Below, in pieces: positions 2,090 to 63,481 of a stretch of 64,000 nt of DNA. A program made the position numbers and the translations under genes. The first letter of the stretch is position 1; each line of letters opens with the position of its first letter. The stretch comes from Azolla caroliniana (taxonomy: Eukaryota; Plantae; Polypodiophyta), in NCBI GenBank assembly GCA_043228905.1, contig JBHGNT010000016.1:5208001-5272000 (forward strand). The letters are read 5' to 3'. A model generated the notes under the pieces. It saw only the letters and a program-made list of their open reading frames with translations. It ran no database searches and was not told the DNA's origin.

Positions 2090-2408
2090 CTCAATGTAAA
2101 TCATTTTGGTTGTATATGAATCTCATTTTGGTTGTAGATGACTCAATGTAAATCATTTTGGTTGTAGATGACTCAATGTAAATCATTTTGGTTGTATATG
2201 ACTCAATGTAAATCATTTTGGTTGTATATGAATCTCATCTTGGTTGAATATGAATCAATTTTTGAATCTCATTTTGGTTGTATATGAATCTCATCTTGGT
2301 TGAATATGAATCAATTTTTGAATCGCATTTTGGTTGTATATGAATCTCATTTTGGTTGTGTATGAATCTCATTTTGGTTGTATATGAAAATCATTTTGGT
2401 TGTATATT
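2062..2408. repeat. Minisatellite of ~22-30 bp units (TCATTTTGGTTGTATATGAATC)
   Basis: More than 10 adjacent near-identical units. Confidence 0.9.
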
Positions 2409-2545
2409 GGAATTGTTTTGGGTGTCAAAAGAATAAGACTAATAGCTTATTGACAAGTAGTGAAGGCAATGGTTTTTGAGAAAGGCCAATAAAGAGTAAG
2501 TATATAGAAAGAGTGCTTCGGTCCTTACGTAAAGAATACATAGTA

Positions 2546-2787
2546 AGACATAATGTCAATCCATTTCAAAGACATAATAAGACTCAATGTCAATCCAATT
2601 CAAAGACATAATAAGACATAATAAGACTCAATGTCAATCCAATTCAAAGACATAATAAGACATAATAAGACTCAATGTCATTCCATTTCAAAGACATAAA
2701 TAAGACTCAATGTCAATCCATTTCAAAGACATAAATAAGACTCAATGTCAATCCATTTCAAAGACATAATAAGACTCAATGTCAATC
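2546..2787. repeat. Minisatellite of ~34-45 bp units (AAGACTCAATGTCAATCCATTTCAAAGACATAAT)
   Basis: About 6-7 adjacent units; shares GACTCAATGT-AATC with the preceding array. Confidence 0.9.
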
Positions 2788-2817
2788 TTATGACTAAGGT
2801 TAAAAATCGGGAGTGCC

Positions 2818-3920
2818 ATGACTAAGGTTGATTGGGCTTTGATCTTGCATCATGCCTATGCACTCCGAGATCTTGGGAAAGTGGCACATGTTCAACCCTA
2901 CCTGCATGGTGAACCAGGATCTCCCGCCATACAACCATTTATCTTGATACTTCAAGATCAATGGATGTTGGAAATGTGTGAGCGGTTGACCCTAAACAAC
3001 TCTTGGGCAATCGACTCGACATTTAAAACAAACCAATTTGGGCTACCATTATATGCCGCAGTTGCCCCCAATGCCATGGGAATTGGGATCCCATTATGGT
3101 ACATGCTTTGTAGTTCTGATAAGGGGTCAAACCATGAGCAAGTGGCATTAGAAACTTGTTTGAGAGTCATATTCGCAAGGATGCCCACGGTGAGGCCAAA
3201 TGCGATAGTGATCGATAAATGTTGGACGTCATATAATGCCATAACTAATGTGGTTGCAACAGACCGTCAATCTTGGATTGTTGTAAATGGGCAACGGTCC
3301 CAAACACATTTGTGGTTTGACATGTGTGTGGAGGAAACTCTGGCCCAAGTTTGGTAGAATGTTCAACTATGGACATGTTGACACTACCAATATTGTGAAA
3401 AGACATTGGCAGTTTATCAAGTATACTGCCTTGAGGGGAAGAATAAACCGATCAATTACCGACCTTCTACATGTCTTAATCGGGGACAGTGAAACTGGCA
3501 CTTGCATAGGAGGAACGGTAATAGAGTGGTACAAGCAACGACAAGAAATATGTGAGAGTGGTCGGTTTGCACCACGTGCGAATTGTAGGGATCAAAGGTC
3601 TCGACTTAAAGAAGCAGAGAGAATATTGGAAAGGTATGTCGAAAATAGACATCTCGCAAGAACTTATTGGCAGCAACAATAGACATCTCGTGCAACAATA
3701 GACATCTCGCAAGAACTTATTGGCAGCTCCCCAAACACTTCCAAATCCCACTCCGGAAAAATACAAAGAGGTGCTAGTCGGGCTAGGAGGAGATTGCCAT
3801 TGGTTGACCATGAGAAGGTTCGGTGTTTGCGTTGCGATGGCTTGACCTTGACTTCAAGGGACTCAAATGTTACATGTCGGGATGATTGCATCTTGCAATC
3901 ATCCCGACATGAGCCATAAT
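2818..3920 (+). pseudogene. MULE (Mutator) DDE transposase, broken
   Basis: WAIDSTFKTNQFGLPLYAAV (first D) and IVIDKC (second D) are present. A deletion/frameshift near 3310 removes the CxxH motif. TTNIVKRHW has K at the catalytic E position. A 31-bp duplication (3644/3698) marks a second junction. Confidence 0.8.
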
Positions 3921-21524: not shown

Positions 21525-24500
21525 ATGAAGATGAAGATGAAGATGATTCCATATTCTGCTTTCAGATCGAAACGAAATAATTGTATTTTACATATTTTAA
21601 AGGTTTTCCGATGCCTTTATACTAGTACAGATTTTGAGCAGAGGGTGTTTCCTTCAATACAAGTCAATGTTGTTAATGAAGAGAAACCTGCAAAAGCCCA
21701 TCCTTCTTTTCGTTCGGTTGGGCGAGAATTCAACACTATTCGAGGTGTGTTGTCAAATAATTTCGTGAAAGGGAGTATTTTGTTTTATCAAAACAGAGAT
21801 GAGAAAGGAAAGAATTTTAGTACAGTCGCCATACTTAATTCCATTAACAATTTTGAAGAAGAAAAAGTAGAAGATAGTCCTTCATCTAGCTTGTTGAGCA
21901 AGCAAATCCCTCCTAGAGTAGATGAAAAAAACAGTGATAGTAATGAAATCCATGATTTTGTCGTAGTAGACAAAGATGACTTGGTAGAAGTAAAGGAAGA
22001 TAGTGATAATGAAATCATTGACGTATGTACTAAAGCTGTTGTTGTAGATGAAGAAGACTTGTTTGGAGAAGATGGTAGAGATGAGAATGCAGAATTCTAT
22101 GACTATATTCAATCAGAGGATAGTATTGATGAGTTATTATCTGTATTGCTAGGTTTGGAAGAGTACTTCCCAGATGAAGACCCTAGAATTTGTTGTACTT
22201 GTTTGAGATTAGCCGAGCTTTGTTATCATAAAGGTGAGAATCCAGAGAAGATTCTAGACTATGCTCGGAAAGGTTACCATAACTTTAATGCATCAAAAGA
22301 ACCAATAAAAAGTACGAAGTGTTTGCTAATGATGGGAATCGGTCATTATAGAATGGGTGAACTCAAAGAAGCCATGCTTCCTTTGGGAAAGGCTGCTATG
22401 ATGTTGGAGAGTATAGAGGTTCCATTGGATAAAGAACAAGAAATTGCAACTTTGCAATATAGCATACATGTTATTCTTGGCCAGGTGAAGATCTCTCTTG
22501 GATGGCTTCATGAAGCCATGCTTGAGTTTAAGAAAGGACTTAACTCAATAGATAGGGTCCTTTTGCCACATGATCCGAGATTGGGAACTTACTACATGCA
22601 AGTAGCAGAGGCATATATTCAAACAAAGAACCATGAGGAAGCATTAAGTTTGTGTTTGAAAGCATTTCCAATTTATACAAGTGTCTATGGTTCTATTTCA
22701 TCCGAAGTAGCAGACTTAAGAGCACTTATGCTTCAAATACACAATGAACTGAATAATTACGAGAATGTTCTCTCTGAATGTGAAGAAGTTGTCTCTATTT
22801 TGAAAGATTTGGGAAGGGACGAAGAGGTATTGGGACTCACGTTAGAATCGATGCAAGCTTTTTTTCATCTGGGAAGGTTTAAAGAGGCAATAGTTAAGTT
22901 GAAGGATATCATTGGAAAGACAGAGAATGAAAATTCTCTTCATGTTGAAGCACTTATTCTGCTTGCAAGAGGTTATGCTGGTCTCAAAGATGAGAAAACT
23001 TGTGCTGATTGTTGCATTAAGGCATTTAACACTTTAGAAGGAGATGATCAGTCCGTTGAGAGTGCAAAAAGTTTGGTTAGATTGTCTATAGTATATGAGC
23101 AACTGCAGAATTATGATCAAGCAATGTTAGTTATTCATAAGGCCCTTGAGATTTTGGGTCAGTTTGCTGATAATGAGGAGACATCTTCAGTTTCAGCAGA
23201 TGTTGAAGGTCACTTAGGTTATCTATATCTTTGTATCGGTAAACCTAATGAAGCTTTACCTTATTTGGAAAGGTCTATTGCTAGAAAGAAGGATATCCAT
23301 GGCCAAGAAAGCACGGGGATGGTTAATGTATGGAATCATCTTGGTGTTGCTTATGCACATGGGAGGAAACTTGAAGAGGCATTATATGCATTTAAATCTG
23401 CCCAGTTGATAATAACCGAGGGCTGTAGAAGTTTTGATTTGCTCTCAATTTACATCCACAACAACCTATCCCTCACATGCAAGATGATTGGCAGGTACGC
23501 ACAAATTTATGTTGATTAAATGTTTAAATGAAATTACTGGGTGTTATATGATCCCATTTTAGGCTGATTTCAATAACTAGACAAACTCCAGGATAATAAG
23601 GCTCAGTTTCTGGGAGGCTCTATCCTGATGTAAAGAAAATTTAAGTTTCTAGTAGTAAATATATTCTAGCAGTGGCCTTGGGGACATTTTTTCTTGAATG
23701 TCATTTTGATTTTCTTATAAGTTGGGTGAGTTCATGGTGTGTGCTCCTATCTCTGGTGTGAATGCATGAACCTGGACAGCTTACCCCTTTGAGGTACTCA
23801 TGCACATTCGTGTTTGGAGGATTCATGTTTTAAGAATATATTGTGGGATCCTTAGTGTGTGTTCCACCCAGATGGCAAAAGGATGTGAGAGCGTAAACCT
23901 TGATTTATGGAAGGTTAGGATGTGTGATATTCGATTTCTTAAGGAATGTGAATATGCTTTGGAAAGTGAGAAACCAACCACTATGCCAAACCTTGTATGG
24001 TCTAACTTGAATAAGAATGCCATTACATATGTGCAAATGAAATCATTGTGAATCTTAACGAGTGCAGCACTACTTACAAAGTTTGGGAAAAGCTAAGACC
24101 AACATATGAAAACAATTCGCTTGTAAATCAAGTGCATTTGATGAGAAAACTAGTATCTGCAATTGAAATAGTTGAAAAGTTCCATTGGGCACATATCGAT
24201 TTTCATAAGTATGTTGAATCAATTGGATTGAGACATGCAAGCCTTTGATGATTGGTTGAAGGCCATAGTACTTCTAATGACTTCTTCCATCTGGTATACC
24301 ACCTTGTGGTATTGGTCTCATTTTAATATTGTATGTGTAAACTCTCATAAAACATTTTTTAGCAGCCTATTCCCACCCCAATAAAATTATAGAAAAGGGA
24401 GTGTGCTGTTAATGCCTGAATGGTGACATTAAATATTCTTAATTGCTTTGTTGACATATGTGTCTATATTGATAACTCTATATTTTTCTACCATCTATTC

Positions 24501-28479: not shown

Positions 28480-30662
28480 ATGGCGACTACTGGATCGTGC
28501 GCAAGGAAGGCTCTGAGCGATCGTGCATCACCTGCAGAACCTCTTCACTCCAAGAAGACACAGCAGCAGAATCAGGTAGGCATCCATATGATCTCTATGT
28601 ATTGTGAGGATCGCATGTATGTATAATTTCGATGATGCCTACCATATGATCTCTATATATTGTAAGGATCGCATGTATGTATAATTTCGATGATGCCTAC
28701 CATATGATCTCTATGTATTGTAAGGATCGCATGTATGTATAATTTCGATGATGCGCATATTATTTTATCTTACTTCTTCAATCATCAAACCACTCATTTC
28801 GATTAATGTGCGACTCTTGTTTTACAGGATCTGTGTTTGTTTTCCTACTAAACATGCATCTCGAATCTTTCTTTAAATCTTGTAGTTTCTCGTAGTGTAA
28901 CAGTCTGATTTCCGGTGAATATATCATAAAAAGCTTTGCATCCTTTCCCCTTGTTTCCTGAACCCTGTCCAAACCTTGCAACAAATCATGATCAATACAT
29001 TTACGTTTGCAAACCCTATTTGTTTTAGGGATGCCGTTTCATTGCATCGCGCGCCTCCATGGACTTTGATGTGGCTAACTACATGCTCTCCAAGGAGAAT
29101 CTTGACAGCAAGCTTCCGGTCCAAAATGTATGTACACTTTTCCGATCATCATACTACCTGCTTTTTACTTCAGTTTCCCAACTCCATGGATTATCCAAGC
29201 TGCGTCTGAACGTTTCTTGTACTGCGTTCTTTTTGCAGGAGGAATATCGAAAGCAATTGGCTGGAAACGTGTTGAAGGACAGCAGTCTAATCAACAAAGA
29301 CTCCAGAATCCTTGCGTTCAAGAGCAAGCCTCCTCCTCCTCCCGAGGGATTCGAGAGGAATGCGAGGTTGCTCTATTCTGAGAACATCCAATCTTCTTCC
29401 GCTCCCAAGCGTAACAAGATCTTCCGTCACATTCCCCAGGTATGTATGGAGATCCTTTATGAACATTTCCTACCATGATCAAGTGCATAAAAGATCATTT
29501 TTTTCTGATCTTCATTGTTGGTGTTTTGGTTTTCATTATTCAGTCTGCGGAACGAACGCTGGACGCACCAGAATTGCTCGATGACTACTATCTCAACCTA
29601 CTCGATTGGAGCTCCAAGAATGTGGTGTCAATTGCTCTCGGTAACACTGTATATTTGTGGCATGCGACATCAGGGGCCATTGAGGAGCTGATGCAAGTTG
29701 GAGAGGAACAAGGTCCCGTGACTAGCGTCAACTGGGGCCCTGATGGGAAGCACATCGCTGTTGGTCTGGAAAACGGCGAGGTTCAGCTCTGGGATTCCAC
29801 GGCCCTCTGCAAAGTGAGGACCATGAAAGGCCACAGTGGGAGGGTTGGGAGCTTGGCATGGAATGGTGGCCCCATTCTGAGCTCGGGAAGCCGGGATAAC
29901 ACCATCTTCAACCACGATGGTGAGTTCCATCCATTCTGATCGTTCTTTGCTTTCATTCTCTGCTGGATAGCATATTGAGATGTGTATTTGGTTCTCTGTA
30001 CGTATGTGGCAGTGCGCATCCGAGATCATGTGATCACGAAGATGTGCAGTCACGAGCAAGAGGTGTGCGGGCTGAAGTGGTCTCTGTCGGGGCAGCAGCT
30101 TGCGAGCGGGGGGAACGACAACCTCCTGCACCTGTGGGATGCCAAGATGATGACCAGCGGAGCCCCAACCTCGTACCTGCACCGCCTGGAGGAGCACCGC
30201 GCTGCAGTGAAGGCCCTGGCATGGTGCCCCTTCCAGAGCAACCTCCTCGCCACCGGCGGAGGCACGGCAGACGGCTGCATCAAGTTCTGGAACACGCAGA
30301 CCGGCGCCTGCCTCAACAGCGTGGACACCCACTCGCAGGTCTGCTCCCTCCAATGGAGCAGGCACGAGAAGGAGCTGCTGAGCTCCCATGGCTTCAGCCA
30401 GAACCAGCTGTGCCTGTGGAAGTACCCGAGCATGACGAAGATGGCGGAGTTGAGGGGCCACACCTCCAGGGTCCTGCACATGGCGCAGAGCCCCGATGGC
30501 TACACCGTCGCATCGGCAGCGGGGGACGAGACCCTCCGCTTCTGGCAAGTCTTCGGGACTCCCGACAACACCAGCAAGCAACAACAGCAACAGCAGCTGC
30601 TGAGGTCCAGGAGCACAGAAACTGGGTGCATGAACAGCAGCAATTGCACCATGATCAGGTGA
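28480..30662 (+). CDS. CDC20: CDC20/Fizzy APC/C co-activator (WD40), 473 aa, with a non-canonical C-box
   Basis: Exons 28480-28575, 29029-29127, 29239-29439, 29544-29919 and 30013-30662. Motifs RILAFK (Mad2-binding), [19 protein letters not shown] and [14 protein letters not shown], plus a terminal IR tail. Confidence 0.95.
28585..28755. repeat. 58-bp tandem repeat x3 in CDC20 intron 1
   Basis: catatgatctctat.tattgt.aggatcgcatgtatgtataatttcgatgatgc at 28585, 28643 and 28701. Confidence 0.92.
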
Positions 30663-32513: not shown

Positions 32514-35645
<3,132 letters not shown>

Positions 35646-44063: not shown

Positions 44064-44605
44064 AGAGAGAGAGAGAGAGAGTGTGTGTGTGTGTGTGTGT
44101 GATAAATTGGTAAAGGTTGTTTTGTGAAGACAAGGTTGGGCATTGAGCTAAGGACTATATTCGTGTAGCAAAAGACATGGGATTTGAGCCAAGGCATGTG
44201 AGTCAATAACAATATAGCCTACAACTAGGAAAAGCCTTGGAACACAAATGACGCGACGAGTGAGTTATTACTAACCTAGTATATTTATATTGGTTTCTCC
44301 AACTCATTAATCATTTCACAATCAACTATTATCATGATAGTTACATAAGTATGAGCAGGTTGTATGCACACATGCACTTAGGTGAGGGGGTGTCCACAGA
44401 CTTGATAGGGTAGGACAAGACAAGACAAGACAAGACAAGGGTAAGAAGGGAAACACTATGGGTGTCCAAGAGATGGGCAATCTATGAGAGCTAGGGGGGG
44501 GGATTAAATGGTCGGGACTCGAGCCTAGAGAGTCTATGAGTAAAATTCCTCCATTAGTGTTTGCACACACACACGCACACACACATTCTCTCTCTCTCTC
44601 TCTCT

Positions 44606-46097
44606 AAGTGGATTCTCAAAGCACTTTTTAAGTAACATGGGGGTCAAGCAAGGATGTCCACCCACACTTTTTGGCTTATGTATTGATAAATTAGAAGAAG
44701 TGGTAAATAAGGTTGCAAGAAAAGAAGGATTGAATGCTCCCAAATTGATGCAATGTGTTATCTTATTGCTTCTATATGATGATGATGTGGTACTCTTCTC
44801 ATATGATGTTGATTGTATGCAAAATTTACTCGGGGTATTAGAAGAATTTTGCCATAGTAGTGGACTAGCAGTGAATGTGGAGAAAACAAAAATGATGGTA
44901 CTGCAAACCATCCAACCTCATCATTACCCTATCCTAACATATAGAGGTGAACATATACAATTTGTTTAAAGCTTTAAATATCTTGGTATTGATGTACCTG
45001 CCACAAATAAATGGAGTGCATGCTTTGAATCAAGGCTCCAAGTCGGTTGGAAATCGTATTACCTTTTGGAGAACCAATGCAACCAAAGTGATACGTGTGG
45101 ATGAGAAGTAAAACTAATGTTGTTCAATGCATGGTAACTCAAGCATTGCTTAATGGAGTAGAAGAATGGGGTGGCACCATCTCTCTTAATGCATGGAATG
45201 AGATTGAGAAAATTCAAAAGATGTTTTTAAGTAGGCAATTAGGAGTTAAATGCACTACCTCTTACTAGGTTATGTTCTTGGAAACAGGTGTTCGACCCAT
45301 AGAACTATTGGCACTCCAAAAACTTAAAAGTATATAAATACATTACAAAAGTTAAGAATATGTTGAATCATCGATTATCACATCTTGCTTGGAATGTTGG
45401 ATGTAAGCTACAAAAGAATCATAAAAGTAAGATTCTCTCATCCGGTTGGGTTGTTGACATAAGGAGATGGTTTAGAAGATGGAGTTTGGATGATCTTTTA
45501 GAGCTTTCACGCAAGGCAATGCTATGCATTATGTAATGATTGAGAAAAGGTTGGTGGAATCATTAAGGATGAAGTGGGAAGATGCTAAGAGGACAAAGCT
45601 AGAATACTACGTTGCAAATGTCAACCCTCAATGTTGGTCTCAATATAAAGCAAGAATGCCTACTGATCGTATTCAACCTTATCTCATTACCAATACGAGT
45701 AGTAATGCTCGTAGAGCCCTTACACTACTTCGCACTCAGATCTCACAAGTTAGGTATTGAAGTTGCATCATGGTATCCGAAATGTAACTAATGTGAAGAC
45801 ATGCAAAGTATGCAATGACGGCATGGCAGAGGATGAATGACACTTTGCTCTTCACATGCTCGACATATAGTGCAATTCGTTCAAGATATGCTGACATACT
45901 AAGTAAGAGGGAGTGATAACGTAAGTGCCATACTGAAGACACGACCGAGAAGGTTGAGCTCACGTGTGTGCGCTTTTATTCACACATACAGACATTGTGC
46001 TTCAATGTATGAATGAATACCCCACACATATCGAGAACACATGTATGCTCTGGTCCCATAGGTCAAAATTGGCCTCTTTATGGACGATACAAATTCT

Positions 46098-46360: not shown

Positions 46361-46464
46361 CTCTTTCTCCGCTCGCACAGCGCGAGAGAAAAACAAAAGG
46401 CTGCGCTGCCTGCCCTGTCTTAGGGTTTGGAGCTTCCCCGAATTCTCCCCCCTAACTGCCCGCC

Positions 46465-47967
46465 ATGGATATGACGAACACAGAATTGAAGAAACGGAAG
46501 CTTGAAGAGAATGGCGGAGCCTCTGTTACGACCATGACTGTGACCACTAATTCGACTGCTAATTCTACTCCAGCCATCGCGATCGGGCCTTCAGAGGTCC
46601 CTCTTACTCTCCCTCTTTCCACAGAGAGCAACATTGGCATACCTTCTTACCTTACTCGAGACACAGCTCGCCCTATGCTCGACCTCCTCTCCAAGGAGGA
46701 CCTCGCAAACATAGTTCTGGACGCTGTTCTCCGCCATCCCGACGTGCTTGACGAGGTTCGACGGATAGCCGACCGGGACCCTTCTCACCGCAAGATCTTT
46801 GTACGCGGACTCGGGTGGGAAACCAATAGCCTCAGCCTCAAAAGTACGTTCTCAGAATTTGGGGACCTCGAAGAAGCCATTGCGATCATTGACAAAAACA
46901 CAGGTAAGTCTCGTGGATATGGCTTTGTCACGTTCAAACACATGGATGGTGCAATTAATGCTCTTAGAGAGCCTAGTAAGAGAATTGATGGTCGAATCAG
47001 TGTCTGCCAGCTGGCCTCTACGGGTTCTGCCTCGGCTCAACCTCCACAAGACCTCGCCGCAAGGAAAATCTATGTGGGTAATGTCCCTTTGGCTTGGCCA
47101 GTTGACCATTTGCTTAGCATCTTTTCTGAATATGGCGAGATCGAAGAAGGGCCTCTCGGTCTAGATAAACAAGCAGGCAAAGAGAGGGGTTTTGCTCTTT
47201 TTATATATAAAACTGCTGAGGCAACCAAAAGGGCACTTGAGGAACCGGTGAAGAACATAGGTGGGCATCAACTCTTCTGTAAGCTCGCTGTAGAGGGTGC
47301 AAAACAAAGGTTAAACCCCATGCATGGTCAACCGGATTTGTCAATGCCTGGTTTGGGTATGACCCAACCGGGTGGATCTGGTCCAGTTCCTTCCAATATG
47401 CCCCCATATGGTAGTGGAGGGGGTAGTAGTCAATATGGTGGACCAACGCCACCACAAGGGATGATGACACCTGGTGGAGTTTCATATGGTCAAAACATGA
47501 GCAATTCTATGAATCCAGGTCTTAACCAGGGTATGCACCCAAACTTGCCCATTGCGAACCAACCTGGTGTCAGTAATCCAATGGCAGGTTCATCAATGAA
47601 TCCTGGTCTTCATGGTGGACAACCCATAACCACAGGTGTTGGCCAACTGGGTTCTGCAATCAACACCATTCCACCATCGTATGCATCAGTTGATCCCTAT
47701 GCTCCCTCACATGCAGGATCATATGGAGGAGGTTATTCAGGTGGTGGAACAAACCCTTCATCATACAACAGTCCTCTTCCCATTGCTTCTCAAGGTTTGT
47801 CATCTCTTCAAGGACAATATGGAATGCCAGCTTATCAAGTTCAACAACCTCTGCCATCATATCCATCACAGCAACAGATGGCCTTGCCATACCAGAGTCA
47901 ACAACAATTGGCTGCACCTCGCATGCAACCGACTGGAGCTCCTTCAAATCCTTACTATACCATGTAG
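46465..47967 (+). CDS. UBA2: UBP1-associated protein 2 (two RRMs plus a G/P/Q/M-rich low-complexity tail), 500 aa, intronless CDS
   Basis: IADRDPSHRKIFVRGLGWET, DKNTGKSRGYGFVTF, RKIYVGNVP and YGEIEEGPLGLDK are UBA2 signatures. Probable 3'UTR intron at 47978-48433. Confidence 0.93.
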   Translation: MDMTNTELKKRKLEENGGASVTTMTVTTNSTANSTPAIAIGPSEVPLTLPLSTESNIGIPSYLTRDTARPMLDLLSKEDLANIVLDAVLRHPDVLDEVRRIADRDPSHRKIFVRGLGWETNSLSLKSTFSEFGDLEEAIAIIDKNTGKSRGYGFVTFKHMDGAINALREPSKRIDGRISVCQLASTGSASAQPPQDLAARKIYVGNVPLAWPVDHLLSIFSEYGEIEEGPLGLDKQAGKERGFALFIYKTAEATKRALEEPVKNIGGHQLFCKLAVEGAKQRLNPMHGQPDLSMPGLGMTQPGGSGPVPSNMPPYGSGGGSSQYGGPTPPQGMMTPGGVSYGQNMSNSMNPGLNQGMHPNLPIANQPGVSNPMAGSSMNPGLHGGQPITTGVGQLGSAINTIPPSYASVDPYAPSHAGSYGGGYSGGGTNPSSYNSPLPIASQGLSSLQGQYGMPAYQVQQPLPSYPSQQQMALPYQSQQQLAAPRMQPTGAPSNPYYTM

Positions 47968-50900: not shown

Positions 50901-51639
50901 GAGGGAGCATATCACTTTAGAGCGTCAAAGTACAGGGATTGAGATAATATTGACATAGACTAAGTCTGCTCATACATATTTGTCGATTTGTTTGATTTGT
51001 TACAATTTCATTGTTTAGCATGGAAATGAAACAGCTCAATCTTATTGTGCAAATCAATGAAGTTTAAGCAAATGCTTAAGCAACATCTATCCAGGAGAAA
51101 TATGTGTAAGATGTTGCTGGAAATGCTTTAGCAAACCTCTATCTAGGAGAAAGATTTGTAAGAAAAAGATACATAAAAAAAGCAACTTTATTTTTCACAA
51201 AGATAGTCTTTTTGGACTATTTCTCATACATAGTAGCACGTCTTGACTCACATCTTACTAAATTCAGCTCTTCAAATATTTTTTCAAAACGATATAAAAA
51301 TAAGAATTAGTTGGAAGGCAAATCGAGCTAGCCCTAGAACACAATTGAAGTGTGTGAATGGAAATTGTTGTTCAATTCATGTATGTCATAGTTCCTTGCT
51401 CAAGCAGGTGTGAAAGCAACAATTTTGACTCTTGAATAATACAAGCTTAATTCAATGCATGGATCGTTAGGTTTTGCACATGGGCTTGATACACTTCTCA
51501 GACATTGCTTTTCACCACATCTTGACCAAGGTTCATCCATGGAAATGCTTGACACAGGTAAAATAAGATCCAACTGCTAGGAGTTGGCAACGGTTCAGCT
51601 TAAGCATGAACCCGCCCTTTTAATCGTCGTTAAATGGTT

Positions 51640-51835
51640 TGGCGGTTTGCTCAAGCTGGAGGTTTGTTAACCGTTTTGAGCTTGGGCTCTTGCGGTTTGG
51701 TCAGGCTTGAGGTTTGTTAACCGGTTTGAGCTTGAGTTCTGTGCGGTTTGGTCAGGCTGGAGGTTTGTTAACCGGTTTGAGCTTGGGCTCTGTTCGGCTG
51801 GAGCCCTGGTAACCGACTCAAACCGGTTAAACCAT
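51640..51835. repeat. ~51-bp subterminal tandem repeats of the hAT element
   Basis: aggtttgttaaccg.tttgagcttg.g.tct occurs three times. Confidence 0.88.
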
Positions 51836-52277
51836 TTAGGTCATCTAACAATAATTTTAACAGTATCTTGAGCTGCAACTCGGAGCACGCCTTCTTCTGT
51901 CGACTCCTCAGCAGCAGCAGCCTACGACCTGCACGGCTTCTGTCGACTCCTCGGCAGCAGCCTACGAGCAGCACGGCTTCTATTGATTTTCTGAACTGCG
52001 AGGCTCGACCACACCTTCTGCGGACTCCTACACAGTATGTTTCACCTCCTTCTTTTGAATCATTAGTTGTGGCTGGATCATAGAATTTAAAATCCGTTTT
52101 CTCCAATTGCTTTGCATCCCCCTGTGTCTTCATTCAAGGCGCCTTGTGACCACACACGTGATGATCCTGTATGATTTCTTCATGCTGTCCCTAAATTGAA
52201 GTCATTAAGTGTGGGTTAAGTTATGTTTTAAGTTAATCTCTTTTTTTATCTCCTTTAGTTAAGAGATGAAGGACGCG

Positions 52278-52535
52278 ATTAGGGTGTTTTCTTAGGGAGC
52301 TTAGGATCTTATGTTTGCTAAGTTCAAGAGTGGTTGATACCCATTGCTGACCGCATCACCAGCAAAATGGTGCATGTTCGCCTGATCCCATGCAATGATC
52401 TCCTTTAGGGTGTGTTTTTTAGGTAGCCTAGGATCTCATGCTTGTTAAGTTCAAGAGTGGTTGATATCCATTGCCGGCTGCATCACCAGCAAAATGGTGC
52501 ATGTTCACCTTATCCCATGTTTGTTAAGTTCTTCA
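52278..52535. repeat. ~127-bp tandem duplication in the transposase 5' intron region
   Basis: aagttcaagagtggttgata.ccattgc...catcaccagcaaaatggtgcatgttc occurs twice. Confidence 0.85.
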
Positions 52536-54229
52536 TATCTTCTAACAAACATGGGGTCAAGAAGTACTAGTGAGTGGCCTTGGGAGGTTGGGCCAATAAT
52601 AATTTGAAAAGTAATCAGCAGACAAATTGTCAGTCAAGAAGCTAAAATTTCCAAATTTAGGGTAACGTAAAAAAATGCAGGGCATCGGTAGATTTTGTTT
52701 TACGAAAATGCGAAGGAAAGCTTCTCTAATTTGTTTTTGTCTACCACCTAGGCCTGCCCAGCTGGGTTTCTTTCACATGAATCATAGATGTTTGAATGTT
52801 TAAGTAAAGTTATCGTTTGTGTATTTTCATGTCCAAACTAGAAATTTCCTTTTTTTAAGGTCATGTTTCCTGCATTGTTTCATAACTGATATTGCTTGTA
52901 TTATGACATAATGTGATAATGCCAAAAATTATAAGAGTGATACCTTGAGCATGATTTAAAATGTGTATTTTGATTGATATGTTAATGGTTGCGATATTAT
53001 TGTTATGATATTTTCACGATGATTGTTTCACGTACAAGAATTATCACGTGTCATTTTAATATACATGGAAGATGGTTTTATTTTAAGAAAGAATGGATGG
53101 GTTTTCAGGTTAGATTTAAAATCAGATTTATTGAACCATGCCAAAGAAGGTTCAACATGATTCTATTAAATACTATATGATATAATGAAGGGACAAGGTG
53201 GCATTTATTGAGCCAATAACATGATTCTATACAATGTTACACATTTGTGTTACCCTATTTGCATAGTTCCATTAGACATATTGAGTTACTTCAAATTATG
53301 GTTGTAGATTTTGATGAAATTTATGATGATACATAGTTAAATGCATGAAAGAGAATTGTGTACATAAAAGAATGCATCGACTTGTGTGCATTATGCATCT
53401 CAATGGTTATGATACGATTAGCCTTTGATATTTACACCAATAAGCTTTTATATTTTCTTGAAGAGAGTGTGAGATGGTCATGCAATCCAAACTAAAGAAA
53501 CACTTCTATCTTTCTAGAGGACACAAGCTCCATACTTGGTCCTGACCTTTACATTTTTCCTTCTTGTATATGATTAACACAAAAATAAGAATCACCAAAC
53601 ATTTTTCCTTCTTGTATATTTTTCCATATTTCTACTTCAAAAAGTAGGAATCACAAGCCAAACTTTTAGTTGCTTCTTGAAAAATAAATCATGAGTTTTT
53701 TAACAAATCATAGACATTATCCTTGAAAAGTTAAATGCTACGGACGGAGAAATCCATAGTTTTTAACTAAATTCCTCAGGACAGCACAAAGGTGGTTATG
53801 CTTCATAACTCACGTAGTACCTTTGCCTGGTAGTGGAGGTGAAATGTTCATAAAATGAGTTCGTTCTTGCAAACTAGGATCATGAATGAATAAAAACACT
53901 GTACCCATGGCTGAAGCCAACTTTAAGTTTTAATTGGGACAAATGTTAACTTTAGAATCTCAATACAACAAAATTGGGAATATTGAATTTGAGACTTCAC
54001 AATTATATTGTTTTATGTATAAAGGCAATGTTTGCACATTTTGTTTTATCATGTCATAGTCTTGTTTGTAACTTTTTTTGCATGCTGTGCAAGTCGTTAT
54101 TAAATTCAAATGATAGTACTGCTGAGATGTCATCTTTCGATTTTTGTACGAAATAATTGTACATGTATTTATTTATTTGTTATCTAACACCATGATTTCT
54201 AATTTGTAATACAGATTCCAGACCTTTCT

Positions 54230-56428
54230 ATGGAAGATATTCAAGCTATAACTCCTTCTTTATCATCACCCACTGAGGTGGCATCAACTACAATCACTAG
54301 ATGCAAAATAAGGGCAAGAAAAAGATCTTCATGGACTGAGCAACACATCCTCTCCATCAAAGAAGGAGATGCATCTAAACGTCGATGTAATTATTGTCAC
54401 TTGTTATGGTCAAGCTCTACTTCTACAGGTTCTATTGCCAAACATTTATCAGATAAGCATAATATTAGTAGCACAACACCGCCACAAGTTTCTAATAGTG
54501 TTTTTGTCCAATCTCAAATAGATGCACCTGCATCTTCATTAGCTATATCCCGTACTTTAGAGAAGAAATTTGATAGTTCTATTGCTAGGTTTATAGTTTC
54601 AACAATGTTGCCTCATGCATATGTTGAATCCTCTAGTTTAAGAACATTAGTGCACGATTTCTCGCCAAGTTATCAACTTAAATCAGCTCATACAGTTAAA
54701 AGATTAGTTTTACGAATGTATATTGTTCTCCGTCAATTAGTTATTACTTATTTGTCCTCACAAAGTTTTAGATATGCTATGACGTATGATGGCTGCACAA
54801 ATGATAGTTTGAAAGGATTTTATCCAATGACTTTACATTGGATCTCTTTAGAGTCTGGCAAGTCAATTAGTGTGCTTTTAGACCTTCTAGATGTCTTTCC
54901 AGGAGATGGAGTAGGAAAACGTGTCGGGCAAGCTTTATTCTCGCGTCTAAAATCATTTGGTGTCTCTTCACGTCTTCTATCCACAACATGTAATGGTGTT
55001 AGTGAAAGTCCGATTGCATCAAAAGAACTAGCTAGGTTGTTGCTTAGTCATCATGAACAGGACATTTTGCAACCATCACATATGTTAAGATGCATGGTCC
55101 ATACATGTGAGCTTGGTGTAAAGTCTGCAATAGAGGTTATTACTCCTTCTACTATGAAATTAAGGAAGACATTATATTCTATACGCACAAGTAAAGTTGG
55201 TAGAGCTATTTTTAAAAAATATTCAAAAAATATACATGAGAATGGAGAGCAAGAACCGCCACGTTTAGATTGTGCCACTAGTTGGAATTCAACTCTAGTA
55301 ATGTATCAACAAGCCTTAAAGTTAAGAGATGTCTTGAGTTATACCATAAATGACAAGGCTATTGCCCATGAGTTTGTGGACCATACTCTCTCAATAGAAG
55401 ATTGGAATCATATACAAAGTATGGAACGATGGCTACTTGTGCCTGCTGTAATTTGTAATTACATAAGTGGCTTAAAGTACCCAACCCTCTCAATAGCAGC
55501 ACTTGCATTCAAACGTTTGTTATCACATTGTAATAATTATATATCTATGGATATGGATTCAATTGAGTCACCCTCCGAGAGGACCAATCTTGAAGTTCAA
55601 CAGGAGGCTAGTAACAAATGTTTACAATACCTAATCGAGTACCAAGAATCATTGAATTCTATTCCATCTCGGATCACAATGTTTCTTGACCCAAGGTATT
55701 TCTGTTAGATTGACATCTTCACTGTTTTTATCTTTTGTAATGTATGATTTTCAAAATGTTTTACTAATATTGTCTTCGATCTTGATGTAGAGTTTCAAAA
55801 CCAAGTAATCCAATAGAGAGAAACCTTGATATAGAATTGGTCGGAAATGTATTAGACTTAAACTATCTCGTCAATAATGTCCATACTTCTCCATCTTGTG
55901 ATACATCTGAAGGACATCATTTTGGACATGAGGAGTTTTGGAAAATGTTAGGTGCTAATGGGAAATCTCATGAATCATCAACAAGTTCAGAAATTGAAGA
56001 TTTCTTGAAGTTGCCACGAGCAAAGACTAACATAGACCCTCTTCAATGGTGGTTTACTAACAGGTTTTGTCAAATCTTTTTTCATGTTTTAAACACATTT
56101 GTTGATATTATCTAATTTGTTGACTTGAAATAGATCCAGTTTACCAAGGTTGTACAAGATGGCATGCGAATATTTGGCAATTCCAGCTTCATCGGTGCCT
56201 TCAAAGGAAGCTAATTCCGAAGCTAGTTATAAATTTGAAGATAGTGTTCACTTACATTCATGCATTTTTAAGGCGGAGATGTGCATTAGATCTTGGTTGG
56301 ATCTACTTGATAGTGCAAACATTTCTATACCCGAAGATATTAATGATGCGTATAATAGTTTGGATATTGATTTAGAAGACATGATGGCAGAGGATGATGT
56401 CATGGAATACCTGTACTTGGACCAGTGA
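54230..56428 (+). CDS. hAT transposase-derived protein (BED zinc finger, RNase H-like fold, hATC dimerisation domain), 677 aa, catalytic residues substituted
   Basis: Exons 54230-55695, 55791-56063 and 56134-56428 (both introns phase 2, GT-AG), with no stops. Motifs CNYC...HLSDKH, MTYDGCT, RCMVH, TSWNST, FLDPR, DPLQWW and YLAIPASSVPS. Confidence 0.9.
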
Positions 56429-58172
56429 TAATTTTTTGAAATTTCGAAGTACATGATGATTTTTGGAATACTTGCTGTTTATGATTTTTAGACTTTTGGA
56501 TTACTTGACGTTTATTTAATGATGACGTTGGATGCTAGATAGTGTGGTTGCTCAATGTTGAAAACTGCTTGTTAGAAAGAGTTTCTTAAGTGTCAAGAAT
56601 ATTCTTCTTTCTTGGCCAAATGGGATCATTTGAACATGAAATATATTGGTCTTTAGAACTTATGAGTGTATTAAGACTTGTACTATGTACTATGTAGTGT
56701 GTATGTAGTATATAGTTTGAAACAATGTGCGTTTTAATTTGTCACAACAAACTCACTAAGTTTTATGGAAAAATACAGATGAAAGAATTGGTGGAACTTT
56801 GAATTTTCTCATAATAGGCTATTAAAAGCTACAATACACATTTGATCTTGGGAAAAAAGTGTACACTTTTTTCCTAAATATTTTCTATACAATGTAAAAA
56901 GTGATCCGTCAACTCACACAACTTCACCATTAACGCAACGTTGTTTAGAAACTTCATTATCAGAATTTGTATGACAACGATGATGTCAACAATCCCGAGA
57001 AACAATTACTTTGTAAAGATTCCTTGGAACTTGTTCTTGATCTTGAGTTTCTATGCATTCACTTCGCTGAAGCTAGAAAAACGCAAAACTATTGAATTTG
57101 ATCAGTCCTATTGATTTGGGAGGCATTTGGCCCACCAAACAATCCCATTATATCCTCTCCCTTGAGCTAAAGGGTCAAAAGAATGGCAAAGTGATAAGAG
57201 GGCCAAGAAGGAGATGTTCCTCCACATGACATCCAAGATGAGGGGCTCTTTTTTGCCCCATTGAGGGCGCCCAATGCTCCCAACATGTCCATAATTAGAT
57301 CACCCGTACCTTGGATGCCCATGGCAAGACTGACATATGCTTCTCAGATCATCAATGCATCATTAGTACTACTAGTTATTGTGGCAAAGAACTCGTCCAT
57401 TTCCTCAATGCCCGCACCATCAACTAATTCAACGGAGACAATCTCACCAAGCTAAAGATGATTGGCAAATGGCATATTCTTTCATCATTTGATTAGTTAT
57501 GGAATCCTCTTCCTTTAATAGCAAAATCCCCATCTAAAGGGATCCTTTGCAGTCATGAGGTCTTGTGCCACCATTTGCACCTTGATACTAGCAGCTCGTC
57601 AATGCTTCATGGCATCATGGACTTGGGGTCAAGAAGGATCCTTGATCCCCACAATCACGAGAAGGGTCAAGTTAGAACTAGTGGGAATCCCCTAATACTT
57701 TATAATCTCAATCAACAATACTTTGGACATCTGAGATCCATGTATGAGAAAGCTATGCATTTTAAGCTCTCAAAAACCATTGCGTGAATTTGTTTCTCCC
57801 GTCTCTTGTAATGGGGATAAGGGGTATTATTTTATGACATCATGGTTTTGGAATGTTTGGAATGTAATTTCAATTCGTTTTGATGTGGATTTTGAATATC
57901 ACACTTGACCAAATATCTACTACACATTGAGCTTAACCGATTTGGGGGGCGAGCCAAACCAATTTCAAAACCGGTTAACGCTTAACCGGTTTAGAGTTTT
58001 GGACCAGTTTGGCTTGAACAATGCTAAACCAGTCAAGCCTAAACCAAACCATTGCCGATTCCTAACAGCTACCTATGTATAAACAGAAAAGAAACCCCAT
58101 ATACATTTACATATAAATACAAATATTACAAACGTTTTCATTCTACTTCCAAAATAAAAGTTTAACTGTGGA

Positions 58173-61100
58173 TTAATTATCCCCACGGTGTTTGAAATTA
58201 GATGACACCCATCCAATGCCAGCACGGCCATTATTACTTAACCCTTGTAAGGGTTGCACCATTCCATCTCTCTTTTTTCCTAAGCCTTCACCCTGCACAT
58301 ATAACACAAAAGCTAAGGAAAAAGTTCTTCAGCAAGCCATAAAATTGGAAAGCTAAAAGCATTGGCATAATTGATTAACAGGAAAGAAAATAGATAAATC
58401 AAACTTGCATTGCCAGTTCAACTGGAAATTGATTAAATTCTGGAACTCAAAAGCCACCATCATTTAACAAGGAAAAGAGAAAGAATAAAGGAAAAGTGTG
58501 TGAAAAAGTGCATGCACAATGCTGGGTTCCTTTTAGTCAATAGAATATCACACTTGACCAAATATCTACTACACAGGTGATGAACCATCCTTCTGAATAA
58601 TTACAGGATGATTGATTGCCCTTTCAATAAAATAGTAAGAGAAACACATTGTTTCCCCAGTCAAGGAAAGTTGAATGAAGATGTAAAGATAGGATGATAT
58701 TGTTGATAATAGTTTCTAAAAGTCTTCATTTTACTCTCGTAAGAAATTTCCAATGATATAACAGAAGATCGAGTTTTCAAACCTAACACCCCTAGCAGAG
58801 AAGGGTTATAATAAATAAGGCTTTTGACTGTGTTAACTGTGATATCATTCACGAATAGAAATAATTCTTTACAAAATTTATATGCAAGGAAAAAATTTAG
58901 TCGTCTTATAGGCTTGTCACAAGGAAATATGTAGTGGACAATTTAGAGAAGATCAATCCACAGGTGATGATACTAATACAAGGCTTAACAGAAATGTTAG
59001 ACAATGGTCTAGTAATTGTGGGCAATGTAAAGCTTACAAGAAGAAATTTCTGATTCCAGACCCATGGAAGACACTAGTCAGCTTCAGACCCCTTGCAATA
59101 TATTATCAAGGGAAAACATCAGATGTGTGATGGATAATCTGACCAAATGGCCTAAGACTTAAGCTTCAAAAAGATGAACAGTCAAAGACATTAGTCTGTT
59201 TGACATTCCCTAGTAAATTGTAGGTGAACACAGAAGGTCCTTTTTAAGTGTCTTCATATGCAAGCACTCACTAATTGATTACAAATTAAGCATTAGCTCT
59301 CCACTCCATATTATGCCTAGCGTTACTTAAGACTTCATGTAGAAATAAAACATGGAAAGTTGTTATTTCAGTTAGACAGAGAGCCAAAACAGAGCTACAT
59401 TTTTACAGCATCTAAAGCATCTTCAAATAAGAGACACTAGGATAGTTTCTTCTGGGATGACTGAGCCTTGGTGTAAGCGTCCAATCTTTAGTACCTTGGC
59501 ATAAATGCAAATATAGAGAATTTCTTTCTACACAGGAACTTCTCAAAAAAGTCTAAAAACATTTCTTCTCAATAAACCTCTACAGTTCTAAACTTTGAAT
59601 TCCCTTTATTTTTTGTGCTTGCACTCACCTCAGACCATCCCATTTTCTCCAACATGTGCTCCGCAGTTGGACACTTTGTGAAACTATCCTTTGTTGCTGA
59701 ATTTAAGTTTTGAAGTTTATCATGGACTTGTTCAGCATTCCTGCGTTCTTTTGCTCGATCCCGGTATTTCTGGTTTCTCTGTATAGGGGGAAATTAACCA
59801 CTATGGAAATAGATGGGTCTCAAATACAAGTATACGTCATGACAAGATAAAAATTTACAACCTCTTCCACTGAAGCAATTTCTTTCTTTGTTAAAACCCG
59901 AACAGCAGATGGTATCAAATGTGCTTTTTCCTGCAAACCTTTCATAAGTTCACTTTCTATTTGTTGTAGAGATAGCATGCAGAAGTTCCAGCATTCAATA
60001 GCTACCTTTCTTTTAAGAAGCTCGAATCTTCGATGATTAAGATTTGGTGAAAAAGGCTTTGCAATAACAGTATCATGAGATGGCTTCAGAGCAGAATCCA
60101 AACCTTCACTGTTAACATCTTTCAAGAAATCCAAGTTTAGGCATGGAAAATCCCAATCTTTAGTTGGATTAGAGGAGTCATATTTTGTGACTGACGTCAA
60201 ATATTTGTAGCTTGGTTGTCGTAATCTGTATACTTCACCTGCAAGACAAGACGGTAACTGATGTTGGAAGCCATTATTTGAATGTATTTTGTGTAGTATT
60301 TTCTCGTTTGATGAAATCATCTGCACCTGATGAAACTTTTACTAGATCAAGATTGACCTCACAAATTTGGCTAGTTTTAATAATTCCATTGCGATGCTGG
60401 AGTGACGGATGAAGGGTACTTTTATTTGCAGCAAGCTGACCCACAAGACATATAGAGGCCCTGTTCATATTTATTATTTTTTGTGTAGATATAGTCCAGT
60501 ACCAGAGATTTATTGCACCAAGGGATGACTCTGTTTTTACATTAGTCCTCACAACTTGCCCATATTGATCCTGCCATGATTGAATATCCTCGCTTGCATC
60601 AATTTCATCCATTAAAGAAGTATCATCACTGACAAATTCGAAACCTGGAAAAGCTGTGTCAATGAAGATTACCTTATTCGCATTTGAAGTTAAATATGTG
60701 AAATATTGAACATATTTCAGAATTTTTCCCTAAGATAATAACTGTGGGGCTCTAGCGTGCACCTACATAGATTAAATTTAGAATGTGGGCTGATGCCTAC
60801 CACTTGTTGCATCCTCTTCTTCAGTGGATTTTATAAGCAGATTAGGAGGGGTTTCCCAGTTTAATGGAAATTGTTGACTACAATGCAATTTGTCTTGTGC
60901 ATTTAAGTCACTTTTTCTATGGTCGTCCTCTTCGACATGATGTGTTCCAGTTGAAGAAGCATTCCAAGACCCCCCTAAATATGCTTCAATAAGAAATTCC
61001 TCAACCCTGTTGCAAGAACACAGCAAGGCGAGAGGATTATCAAATTTAGCACTATCTGGTTCAACTTGTCAGAGAGTAGAATATAATATAAAAATTAAAA

Positions 61101-61397
61101 GAGAAAGTTTTATGATCCTCTTTGACATGGCAAAGACACAGCATGTGATATGAATATACACTACGCATGCATGTATGTGTATTTACCCTAGGCCCTCTCT
61201 CTCTCTTCCACGTATCTTTGACCAAACCCAATCCTTGCATGAATTTCTCTCACAATCACAATGTGCACTCTCAAATGCAACACTCATTAATAAAGTTCTT
61301 GAACATCGATAGATGCTACTCATTTCCACACATATTACATGAAATGTAATATTTTTGGTGTCATAGGTCATATTTGACCTCCGAAGACGATAATACA

Positions 61398-61429
<32 letters not shown>

Positions 61430-62866
61430 GAATCCAGTGCTTACCATCCAGATGGCAAAGGTTCTTCTGGTAAGCCATCTATGTCATGATTTTGACCCTG
61501 AATCTCATGGGATTTGTATGAGACATTTTGACATGCGAAGTTCTGTGGAACAGATTCATCATCATACCTAACATTTGGTTTATCTGCAATGACACACAAT
61601 TCCTATTAGTTGAGTGTCCAACAGAAATTATATATCCTTTTGCTATTCTATTCTCTTAGAGTCTACAAAAATGTGTTCCTTTTTCTTGTTCAACTCTCCT
61701 ACTCCTACCTTAGGATTTCAATTTGAATCAAACACATTGTCTTACTGTATTATTATTTCCACACACAAAAAAGAACATTGTATCTTATTTTTACAAGAAT
61801 GAGATCCTTTTTCTTGTTATTATTCATTATCGTCTCAATCATGATTAGGTTGGCAAGGATTTATACAAATAGTACCATTGTCTTTACTTTAAAGGGATGA
61901 TATCATTTGTCTTTCTAGCTATTTAATTTACATAAATAAAGCCTCTTAATCTATTGAGATAAGATCCTTCTTTTGCTCTTTAGGATCTCCATACAAAAAG
62001 TGCATTCATTCTCTAACTCTACAGAAATGGTTTCCATTTATAAAGTTTTTCGAAGTAAATATTTTCATACTGATTACCATTTTAAGAAAAGGTATCCATA
62101 AACAACAACATCTGTTCCACTCTACAGAAATGGAATTCTTTTTTCATGGTTGAGGATTTTCCAGAGAAAAAACAATCTTACACTTCAGAAATGTGATTTT
62201 GTTGTATGATTTCCACACACATTGTGTTGCTCTAAAGAAATGAAATTACCTTAGGAATTCCATTAAGACAAACATTGTCATGCACTACATGAAATGGGAT
62301 TATTGTAGTGTTTCCACAGACACGAAAAAACAACATTTCCTTACTCCACAGAGGTGAGATCATTTCTCCATTAACTCTTTACCATCTCGACCTTGATCAT
62401 CAGGTTGAGGTGGATCACCATAGAGAACGTCCGTGCCATACATAAGGCAAGCATTCTGATCTTCGGAGAAATACCAGTAAGTGGAACGTTTGTCATCATA
62501 ATGCCACACGGGATACAGAAGGTAATCCTTCTTCTCTTCACAAAAGTACCAGTAAAAGGATCGATCTTCATGGTGATACCAAAGAGGCCAAGGAGGATTC
62601 ACAGTGTCTGTCTGGTCCGTTGCTTCTGCTTCTGCTATTGGCAGTGTGTAGAGGAGGTAAGCATTGGAATCCTTGCAATAGTACCAATACTCGTTCTTCT
62701 GTTCGTGGATAAACCAAGGCGGGTAGGAGAGCTTTTGGTAGTCTTCTATGTCTTCGGCGTCTTCTTCTTCTTCTTCTTCTTCTTCTTCTTCTTCTTCTTC
62801 TTCTTCTTCTTCTCCTCGTCGTCCTCCATCATCATCATCATCAGAATCCATCTTTGTCATCTTCAT
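58173..62866 (-). CDS. G-patch domain protein with N-terminal acidic tract and OCRE-like aromatic repeats, ~597 aa
   Basis: Exons 62866-62383, 61583-61445, 61006-60801, 60644-60327, 60238-59862, 59778-59629 and 58292-58173 are all in phase. KYRDRAKERR, MLEKMGWSEGEGLGKKRDGMVQPL...GRAGIGW (G-patch) and YDSSNPTKDWDFP are present. The start ATG is uncertain. Confidence 0.88.
61205..61429 (+). mobile_element. RTEX-like LINE family B, 3' fragment with (ATCT)8 tail, antisense in a G-patch gene intron
   Basis: Aligns to the reverse complement of 43293-43500; preceded by (CT)6. Confidence 0.85.
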
Positions 62867-62902
62867 CAAAATCGGCCGTCGTCTATGCAGACTGCAGGCA
62901 GG

Positions 62903-63481
62903 AATGTATGTATGAATGTATGAATGTATGTATGTATGTATGTATGTATGTATGTATGTATGTATGTATGTATGTATGTATGTATGTATGTATGGATGGA
63001 TGGATGGATAATGTATCTATGTATTATTATTATTTAAGTTGTGTCGAGTGAAAGGGTATGTTGTGCTAGATTTGATGTGTGATGGGGGTGTGGGTGTGGG
63101 TGTGGGCGAAAAATATGGGGGGTTGTTTGAGGCCGGATTGGTCCTTGAAGGGTGGTTGTATGTATGTATGTATCTATCTATCTATCTATCTATTATTATT
63201 GTTAAGTTGTGTCAAGTGAAAGGGTATGTTGTGCTCACTGCTAGATTTGATGTGTGATGGGGCTGTGGGCGAAAAATATGGCAGGTTGTTTGGGGCCGGA
63301 TTGGTCCTTGAAGGGTGGTTGTATGTATGTATCTATCTATCTATCTATCTGTTATTATTGTTAAGTTGTGTCGAGTGAAAGGGTATGTTGTGCTAGAATT
63401 GGTGTGTGATGGGGCTTTGGGCGAAAAACATGGGGGGTGTTTAGGGCCAGATTGGTCCTTGAAGGGTGGTTGAAGAGTAGG

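Follow-up and report, generated by a model that had tools for sequence, protein, structure and literature searches.

A hAT transposase gene probably domesticated in place, with recognisable element ends, in the fern Azolla caroliniana

Introduction

When a transposase gene has lost residues needed for cutting DNA and its reading frame is still open, is it a decaying copy that has so far been lucky, or has it been taken into the service of its host? This question is raised by a hAT element at 51578-58064 of a 64-kb window of DNA from the fern Azolla caroliniana (GenBank assembly GCA_043228905.1, contig JBHGNT010000016.1, positions 5,208,001 to 5,272,000; all coordinates below count from the first letter of this window). 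An earlier note, made from the letters alone, had proposed a lineage-specific domestication caught with the terminal inverted repeats (TIRs) of the element still recognisable. Our analysis supports that proposal: the gene is spliced, single-copy and at a site shared between haplotypes, and its recent changes, among the 40 of 521 difference rows listed (the scope of all counts of recent changes in this text), are biased toward silent ones. We therefore consider it probable that a hAT transposase gene has been domesticated in place, an independent new case of the already known phenomenon of transposase domestication.

Results

A spliced transposase gene with a damaged active site

Joining the three coding exons (Table 1) yields a protein of 677 amino acids with no internal stop, as the earlier note had described. 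We used contigs of sequencing runs to examine the two splice junctions that it had predicted, and both were seen: the introns are skipped in RNA-type runs of at least three studies (contigs of X1, X3, X7 and X11; X1 and X3 are possibly one data set). That these four runs are RNA is a guess, supported by the splice joints and by the lack of intron cover. In X11 an untemplated run of A follows 56448, 20 bases past the stop codon. At the other end, 141 unplaced letters in X1 record 1 are joined to 54215, directly behind an AG, and RNA-type depth in X7 extends over 51870-52143. We infer from this that transcription starts within the element's own left end, where a non-coding first exon is likely, the joint itself not being among the rows listed. 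CpG and CHG values in the coding region (0.47 and 0.58) are similar to those of the window and of nearby genes and so are uninformative.

The protein retains its hAT dimerisation domain (PF05699, E 2.4e-7), the cysteines and histidines of its BED finger and the CxxH motif, in line with the domains first reported for it. The BED match in Pfam falls below its cut-off (E 0.076); C53, C56, H72 and H77 fall on conserved columns. The structure model of exon 1 is confident (predicted local distance difference test score, pLDDT, 89), its top ten structural matches are all Hermes transposase, and the modelled fold is that of Hermes (PDB 8edg, 4d1q and 6dww; Foldseek E 3e-9).

The residues essential in Hermes, the transposase of Musca domestica, are D180, D248, R318, W319 and E572, as given in PMC6027215. 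Aligned to the family profile (E 0.003), D180-L-W of Hermes falls on the family motif DGW and its TRWNS on the TRWNS of the family. The window protein keeps two of the five residues (D187 and W352) and has lost three, the equivalents being N255, S351 and K604. Its residues at eight active-site positions are D C N C H S W K, whereas in 10 of 11 near-full-length relatives they are D W D C H R W E; W189C, D255N, R351S and E604K thus make four losses in eight, against 3 of 28 among other near-invariant residues (Fisher p 0.03). The position of W189 is conserved in 85 of 87 sequences, from which we take the residue to have a role in the active site; a literature search found no paper on the corresponding W182 of Hermes.

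The changed motifs in the window are DGCT, TTCNGVS, TSWNS and PSKEANS, and those of the family are DGW, TSDGASE or IFDGASD, CMVH, TRWNS, and SVPSEEANSE or SVPAEEANSA. The first three changes and E604K stand as the earlier note had given them, but its comparison of the last motif with PSERxFS was wrong. Since the family itself reads EEANS, the catalytic glutamate is the first E, and E604K alone departs from the family, the rest of PSKEANS being normal. Of eight regions of the protein, the one with nominally the fewest replacements per column is the BED finger (2 of 23 columns, vs 0.14-0.22 elsewhere).

Shared insertion site, copies and family

The left junction of the element is crossed by two contigs in X6 (98% and ~92% alike) and by two in X16 (contigs only). 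Because the junction is common to divergent haplotypes of X6 and X16, the insertion is older than these haplotypes, which favours the earlier note on the question of a shared site. Close copies differ from the window by 0-1% in X1, X3 and X7 and by 2-5% in X11, X16 and X17; where X2, X16 and X17 have no cover, we did not read this as absence. A far copy, ~10% diverged, is single-copy at the DNA level, and its RNA is spliced. At 189 it carries a cysteine, by a different codon, in X7, X11 and X17, and it retains R351. In X7, where 1708 of its 2031 coding nucleotides are covered, it shows 176 differences and no gap, with 6.7 frameshifts expected. The locus is likely to have been duplicated, and the window gene and the far copy are probably a gene pair.

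The only coding indel of the close copies among the rows listed is an in-frame insertion of 3 nucleotides at 54993 in X11, within the dead D255 motif. Close copies in X11 and X17 also show a 9-nucleotide tandem unit near the N-terminus, with a loose end at 54273. The tract of X2 record 14 at 55283-56179 differs from the window by 3.8%, vs ~1% in its flanks and interior, and its gap count equals that of the X16 copy; this tract is possibly a recombinant or introgressed allele.

Around this gene stands an abundant family. Of 13 matches in a protein search, 12 lie at 51-77% identity, and scanning contigs yielded 51 loci; the window protein shares 75-85% identity with intact relatives and falls within their family in the tree. 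We used contig depth as a proxy for copy number, a rough one, comparing four runs at 80% likeness. In X2 the flanks lie at ~18x and the coding region at 455-855x, which would correspond to roughly 25-46 related copies, and the right end reaches a depth of 165-270 in X2 and X6, indicating that family ends are dispersed in many copies. Loose ends in X2 and X6 read D-G-A-S-E and T-R-W-N-S, that is, the intact motifs. The copy count, a check named in the earlier note, comes out in its favour: the family is multi-copy and intact relatives are many, but the allele in the window has the depth of a single copy. Neither the close nor the far copy sequence occurs among the 51 loci (best 82-88% in DNA), the 88 cluster members or the 48 short matches, and no protein exceeds 86% identity among the cluster members or 80% among the short matches. 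A search with exon 3 for longer proteins gave no match. Loci L012-L028 form a more distant subfamily (~51% protein identity), apparently without the second coding intron and with the motifs IFDGASD and PAEEANSA.

Selection on the reading frame and on amino acids

If the frame has been open by luck, the branch leading from the family to the window should carry the usual load of stops and frameshifts. No stop is seen on the whole branch, where 3.2-5.4 are expected over three reference sets (P 0.04-0.004; two sets give 4.5-5.4 expected and P 0.004-0.012, and the third, of 472 codons, P 0.04). Similarly, no frameshift is seen where 5.6 are expected (P 0.004), at a rate of 42 per ~1107 substitutions in low-copy relatives that low-coverage assembly errors may inflate; 15 of the 16 pieces of such relatives are frameshifted.

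We then considered changes within the close group. From the 40 rows we set aside 1 in an intron, 8 of a family member and 11 where only the far copy or the family differs, and the remaining 20 hold 6 replacement and 14 silent changes. In the strict set of 14 rows, where the window alone is derived, there are 4 replacement and 10 silent changes (omega, the ratio of the replacement rate dN to the silent rate dS, 0.14-0.17, confidence interval to 0.60, p 0.002-0.0004); adding 4 ambiguous rows to the 20 gives 8 and 16. Across the row sets omega is 0.14-0.22 (p <=0.002), against a neutral ratio of replacement to silent changes of 2.3-2.9, and the recent sample differs significantly from the whole branch (p 0.0005). 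The four rows in which the close copies agree with the window against the far copy and the family are all replacements. Coding pieces of the close copies differ by 3.6-4.6%, whereas the non-coding pieces in X16 differ by 8.1% (p<0.001), a figure that depends on copy assignment, the tie of these pieces to the close copy being our deduction.

Several points weigh against domestication. Branch rates were taken from pairwise-distance triplets and from site-pattern counts, and for the whole branch from family to window the triplets give dS 0.08-0.10, dN 0.06-0.09 and omega 0.76-0.96, the value 1 lying inside the intervals; the site counts give 71 replacement and 26 silent changes (omega 0.75-0.88, p 0.13-0.37); in the same triplets the intact multi-copy lineage L002 has omega 0.42-0.56. 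Replacements in exon 1 do not significantly avoid conserved columns (5 seen, 8 expected). Each lost active-site residue is a single base change, and single equivalent changes occur in broken relatives (N255 in L047, S351 in L043, C189 in L046), so that each loss alone proves nothing. The excess of open frame may partly date from a still-mobile lineage, and the finding was chosen for its open frame. The recent changes are counted on 14-24 rows picked from those listed. Copy assignment is uncertain, with intermediate contigs X2 record 14 and X16 record 11, the latter a close contig that lacks R351S; N255 and K604 in the close copies are deduced solely from the absence of any difference there among the rows listed. 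Thus dN/dS, which the earlier note had proposed to compute, is low only for the recent changes, and its inference of purifying selection is supported by the open frame and the recent silent bias but, for amino acids, would apply in recent time only.

Element ends, layout and neighbouring genes

The two TIRs agree at 24 of 32 bases (chance ~2e-8). The ends are real, because matches of 23 X2 contigs stop precisely at 58064 and relatives share the terminal 21-mer. The 8 mismatches in 32 had been read as erosion; the differences are present, but family ends themselves vary somewhat from copy to copy, so this count overstates decay. By eye, the window end differs from those of relatives by ~5 changes per 42 bases, mainly at CpG. 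The flanking 8-mers, a putative target-site duplication (TSD), match at 5 positions as first reported (chance 0.04), which taken alone is weak support. Contigs of relatives that carry both ends have flanks that do not match and are likely to be collapsed copies, and no empty site was seen. The motif AACCG/CGGTT occurs 12 times in the first 253 nucleotides and 5 times at the right end, vs once in the 5.8-kb interior and nowhere in the flanks; by analogy with Hermes (PMC10368747), these subterminal repeats are likely candidates for BED-binding sites. A search of Rfam gave no match.

Table 1. Features of the element and its gene (window coordinates)
Feature	Position	Strand	Remarks
Left flank 8-mer, putative TSD	51570..51577	+	5/8 match with 58065-58072
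Left TIR	51578..51609	+	start identical in relatives including L006 and L011
Left subterminal region	51610..51830	+	three 51-nt repeats
Likely non-coding first exon	51890..52035	+	within the element's left end; followed by 2.2-kb intron; inferred
Coding exon 1	54230..55695	+	K/R-rich stretch, BED finger, dimer-forming DNA-binding domain, RNase H core with D187, W189C, D255N, CxxH, R351S and W352
Intron 1 (95 nt, GT..AG)	55696..55790	+	skipped in X1, X3, X7, X11
Coding exon 2	55791..56063	+	insertion domain, end; splice model and run contigs
Intron 2 (70 nt, GT..AG)	56064..56133	+	skipped in X1, X3, X7, X11
Coding exon 3	56134..56428	+	hAT dimerisation region with E604K, acidic tail, stop codon
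Filler in 3' interior	56800..57930	.	pieces like another expressed sequence; 33-nt exact copy of 58543-58575
Right TIR (58033-58064) and subterminal region	57915..58064	-	5 AACCG/CGGTT motifs
Right flank 8-mer, putative TSD	58065..58072	+	compared with left flank

Within the filler, 57103-57350 matches an RNA-type contig (depth 187 in X1, ~88% alike) that runs on into other sequence, and is likely to consist of fragments captured from another expressed gene. The exact 33-nucleotide direct repeat, at 57894-57926 in the right part of the element and at 58543-58575 in an intron of the adjoining minus-strand gene, is likely to be local templated filler; X2 and X6 contigs have a version with 19 additional letters.

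That adjoining gene (58118-61600, minus strand) is a spliced host gene ending ~54 nucleotides from the right TIR, tail to tail with the element. Its last exons look G-patch-like by eye, and Pfam gives only RED_N (E 1e-4). At 46456-47967 lies a single-exon gene with two RRM domains (PF00076), which we take to be the one that the earlier note called UBA2, a name not confirmed. Also in the window are a TPR gene (21525-23519), a CDC20-like WD40 gene (29029-30662) and a long PPR-like frame (32514-35144), the last two by eye; a broken MULE transposase (PF10551) at 879-3682 and a reverse-transcriptase fragment (PF00078) at 44544-44969; and, at 62360-63016 on the minus strand, a stop-free frame of 218 amino acids that contains an acidic run and three W/Y-rich repeats, lies next to microsatellites and has no meaningful Pfam match.

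Discussion

The simplest account of these rates would be a history in two phases. In the first, amino acids would have changed freely while the frame was kept and the active site was lost; in the second, purifying selection would have acted on a protein already unable to cut. Such selection likely serves the host, because selection on a protein that no longer cuts, encoded at a fixed site, cannot reward the movement of its own copy; this reading presumes N255 and K604 to be common to the close copies.

What, then, might the protein do? The dead subunit keeps its K/R-rich stretch, its BED finger and both dimer-forming regions, and by analogy it may bind the repeats at the ends of its parent family, whose intact members are still abundant in the same genomes and are potential targets. 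Repressors derived from the P element, which are animal proteins, are a model for a dead subunit restraining its family; they are mostly truncated, whereas the window protein is full length with point losses. It might similarly join the oligomers of the family transposase, competing for ends or poisoning mixed rings, with the result that transposition of the parent family would be dampened. In Hermes the BED domains of several subunits in a ring come together on the left end (PMC10368747), which is why a dead subunit with a BED finger and dimer-forming regions could compete or poison in this way. We give domestication together with this dampening role not quite an even chance; if domestication is granted, repression becomes a little better than an even bet.

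Another way to view the same evidence is that the gene was domesticated as a host regulator of transcription or chromatin, like DAYSLEEPER or ZBED6, binding family-derived ends near genes. All of the evidence for selection applies to it, the BED finger, K/R-rich stretch and dimerisation domain are kept, and family ends are dispersed at the depths given above; moreover, DAYSLEEPER lacks the DDE residues and binds DNA (PMC8616336), and ZBED6 is a regulator (PMC2780926). The gene is, however, young and lineage-restricted, as the identity ceilings among cluster members and short matches indicate, and it keeps the full transposase fold with losses in the active site exceeding those at other invariant residues, which fits selection against cutting. 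We regard a regulator as possible and on balance doubtful, and place repression slightly above it, with the reservation that both fit the data equally. A decaying, still-transcribed copy with its frame open by luck would explain a whole-branch omega indistinguishable from 1 and one-base losses that recur in broken relatives; the element's own likely promoter and introns mean that splicing requires no selection, and among dozens of copies there are many chances that one frame stays open by luck. Against such luck stand the joint absence of stops (P ~0.01) and frameshifts on the branch, the far copy, 10% diverged and likewise without a gap, indels in close copies that leave the frame intact, frameshifts in nearly all low-copy relative pieces, and recent changes of 4:10 where ~10:4 is expected, so that we think simple decay unlikely. 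We give still less credence, and call it very improbable, to a non-catalytic helper that adds BED domains and promotes family transposition, or to gene conversion with intact copies as what keeps this copy similar. The Hermes ring cuts with only some of its subunits, the others providing BED domains (PMC10368747), and the mosaic-looking contigs X2 record 14 and X16 record 11 hint that copies or haplotypes have exchanged sequence. But a copy fixed at one site gains no copies by helping, and intact donors would restore the lost residues and would not skew changes to silent sites.

Domestication in place can be set against known systems. Like the window gene, SLEEPER and DAYSLEEPER are hAT-derived and full-length, with a BED finger beside a K/R-rich stretch and a dimerisation domain; they have lost residues for transposition and have an intron before the start codon (PMC3499209, PMC8616336). 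SLEEPER genes are angiosperm-only as reported, with no coding introns and no TIR or TSD (PMC3499209). Unlike them, the window gene has both element ends, a partial, putative TSD and two coding introns that its family has as well, and is nested in the tree of intact relatives to which it is so similar; it would be an independent, much younger domestication in place. That it is itself a SLEEPER gene is ruled out by the two coding introns, both TIRs and the fern host. ZBED genes (PMC3606216, PMC2780926) likewise encode transposase-derived DNA-binding proteins kept by their hosts, but are animal and ancient. Closest in timing is the gene LOC26532114 of the Drosophila obscura group, also recent, lineage-restricted and spliced when expressed, with its DDE residues lost, with syntenic orthologues and mild constraint (dN/dS 0.7; PMC13548663). 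That gene is a Tc1/mariner in an animal, whereas the window gene is a fern hAT with visible ends, intact relatives and signs of selection in two phases. We found no domesticated hAT of a fern in a search of open-access main texts; supplements could list such genes.

In the plant hAT domestications known so far, SLEEPER among them, the first steps are hidden, because these genes are old and no longer have their ends. The significance of this locus is that its ends and introns survive, together with intact parent elements and several copies that are diverging. Whether the catalytic loss was selected or drifted, when purifying selection set in, and whether self-repression is a first job for such a protein are therefore testable here. 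In its fullest form, which we offer more tentatively than the dampening role itself, a fern lineage would recently have made a host gene pair, in place, from a hAT with its ends intact; selection would have removed the active site while the frame was kept and then turned purifying, leaving a full-length dominant-negative repressor of a parent family still present in the same genome. If that is true, the steps of domestication could be ordered residue by residue across living species.

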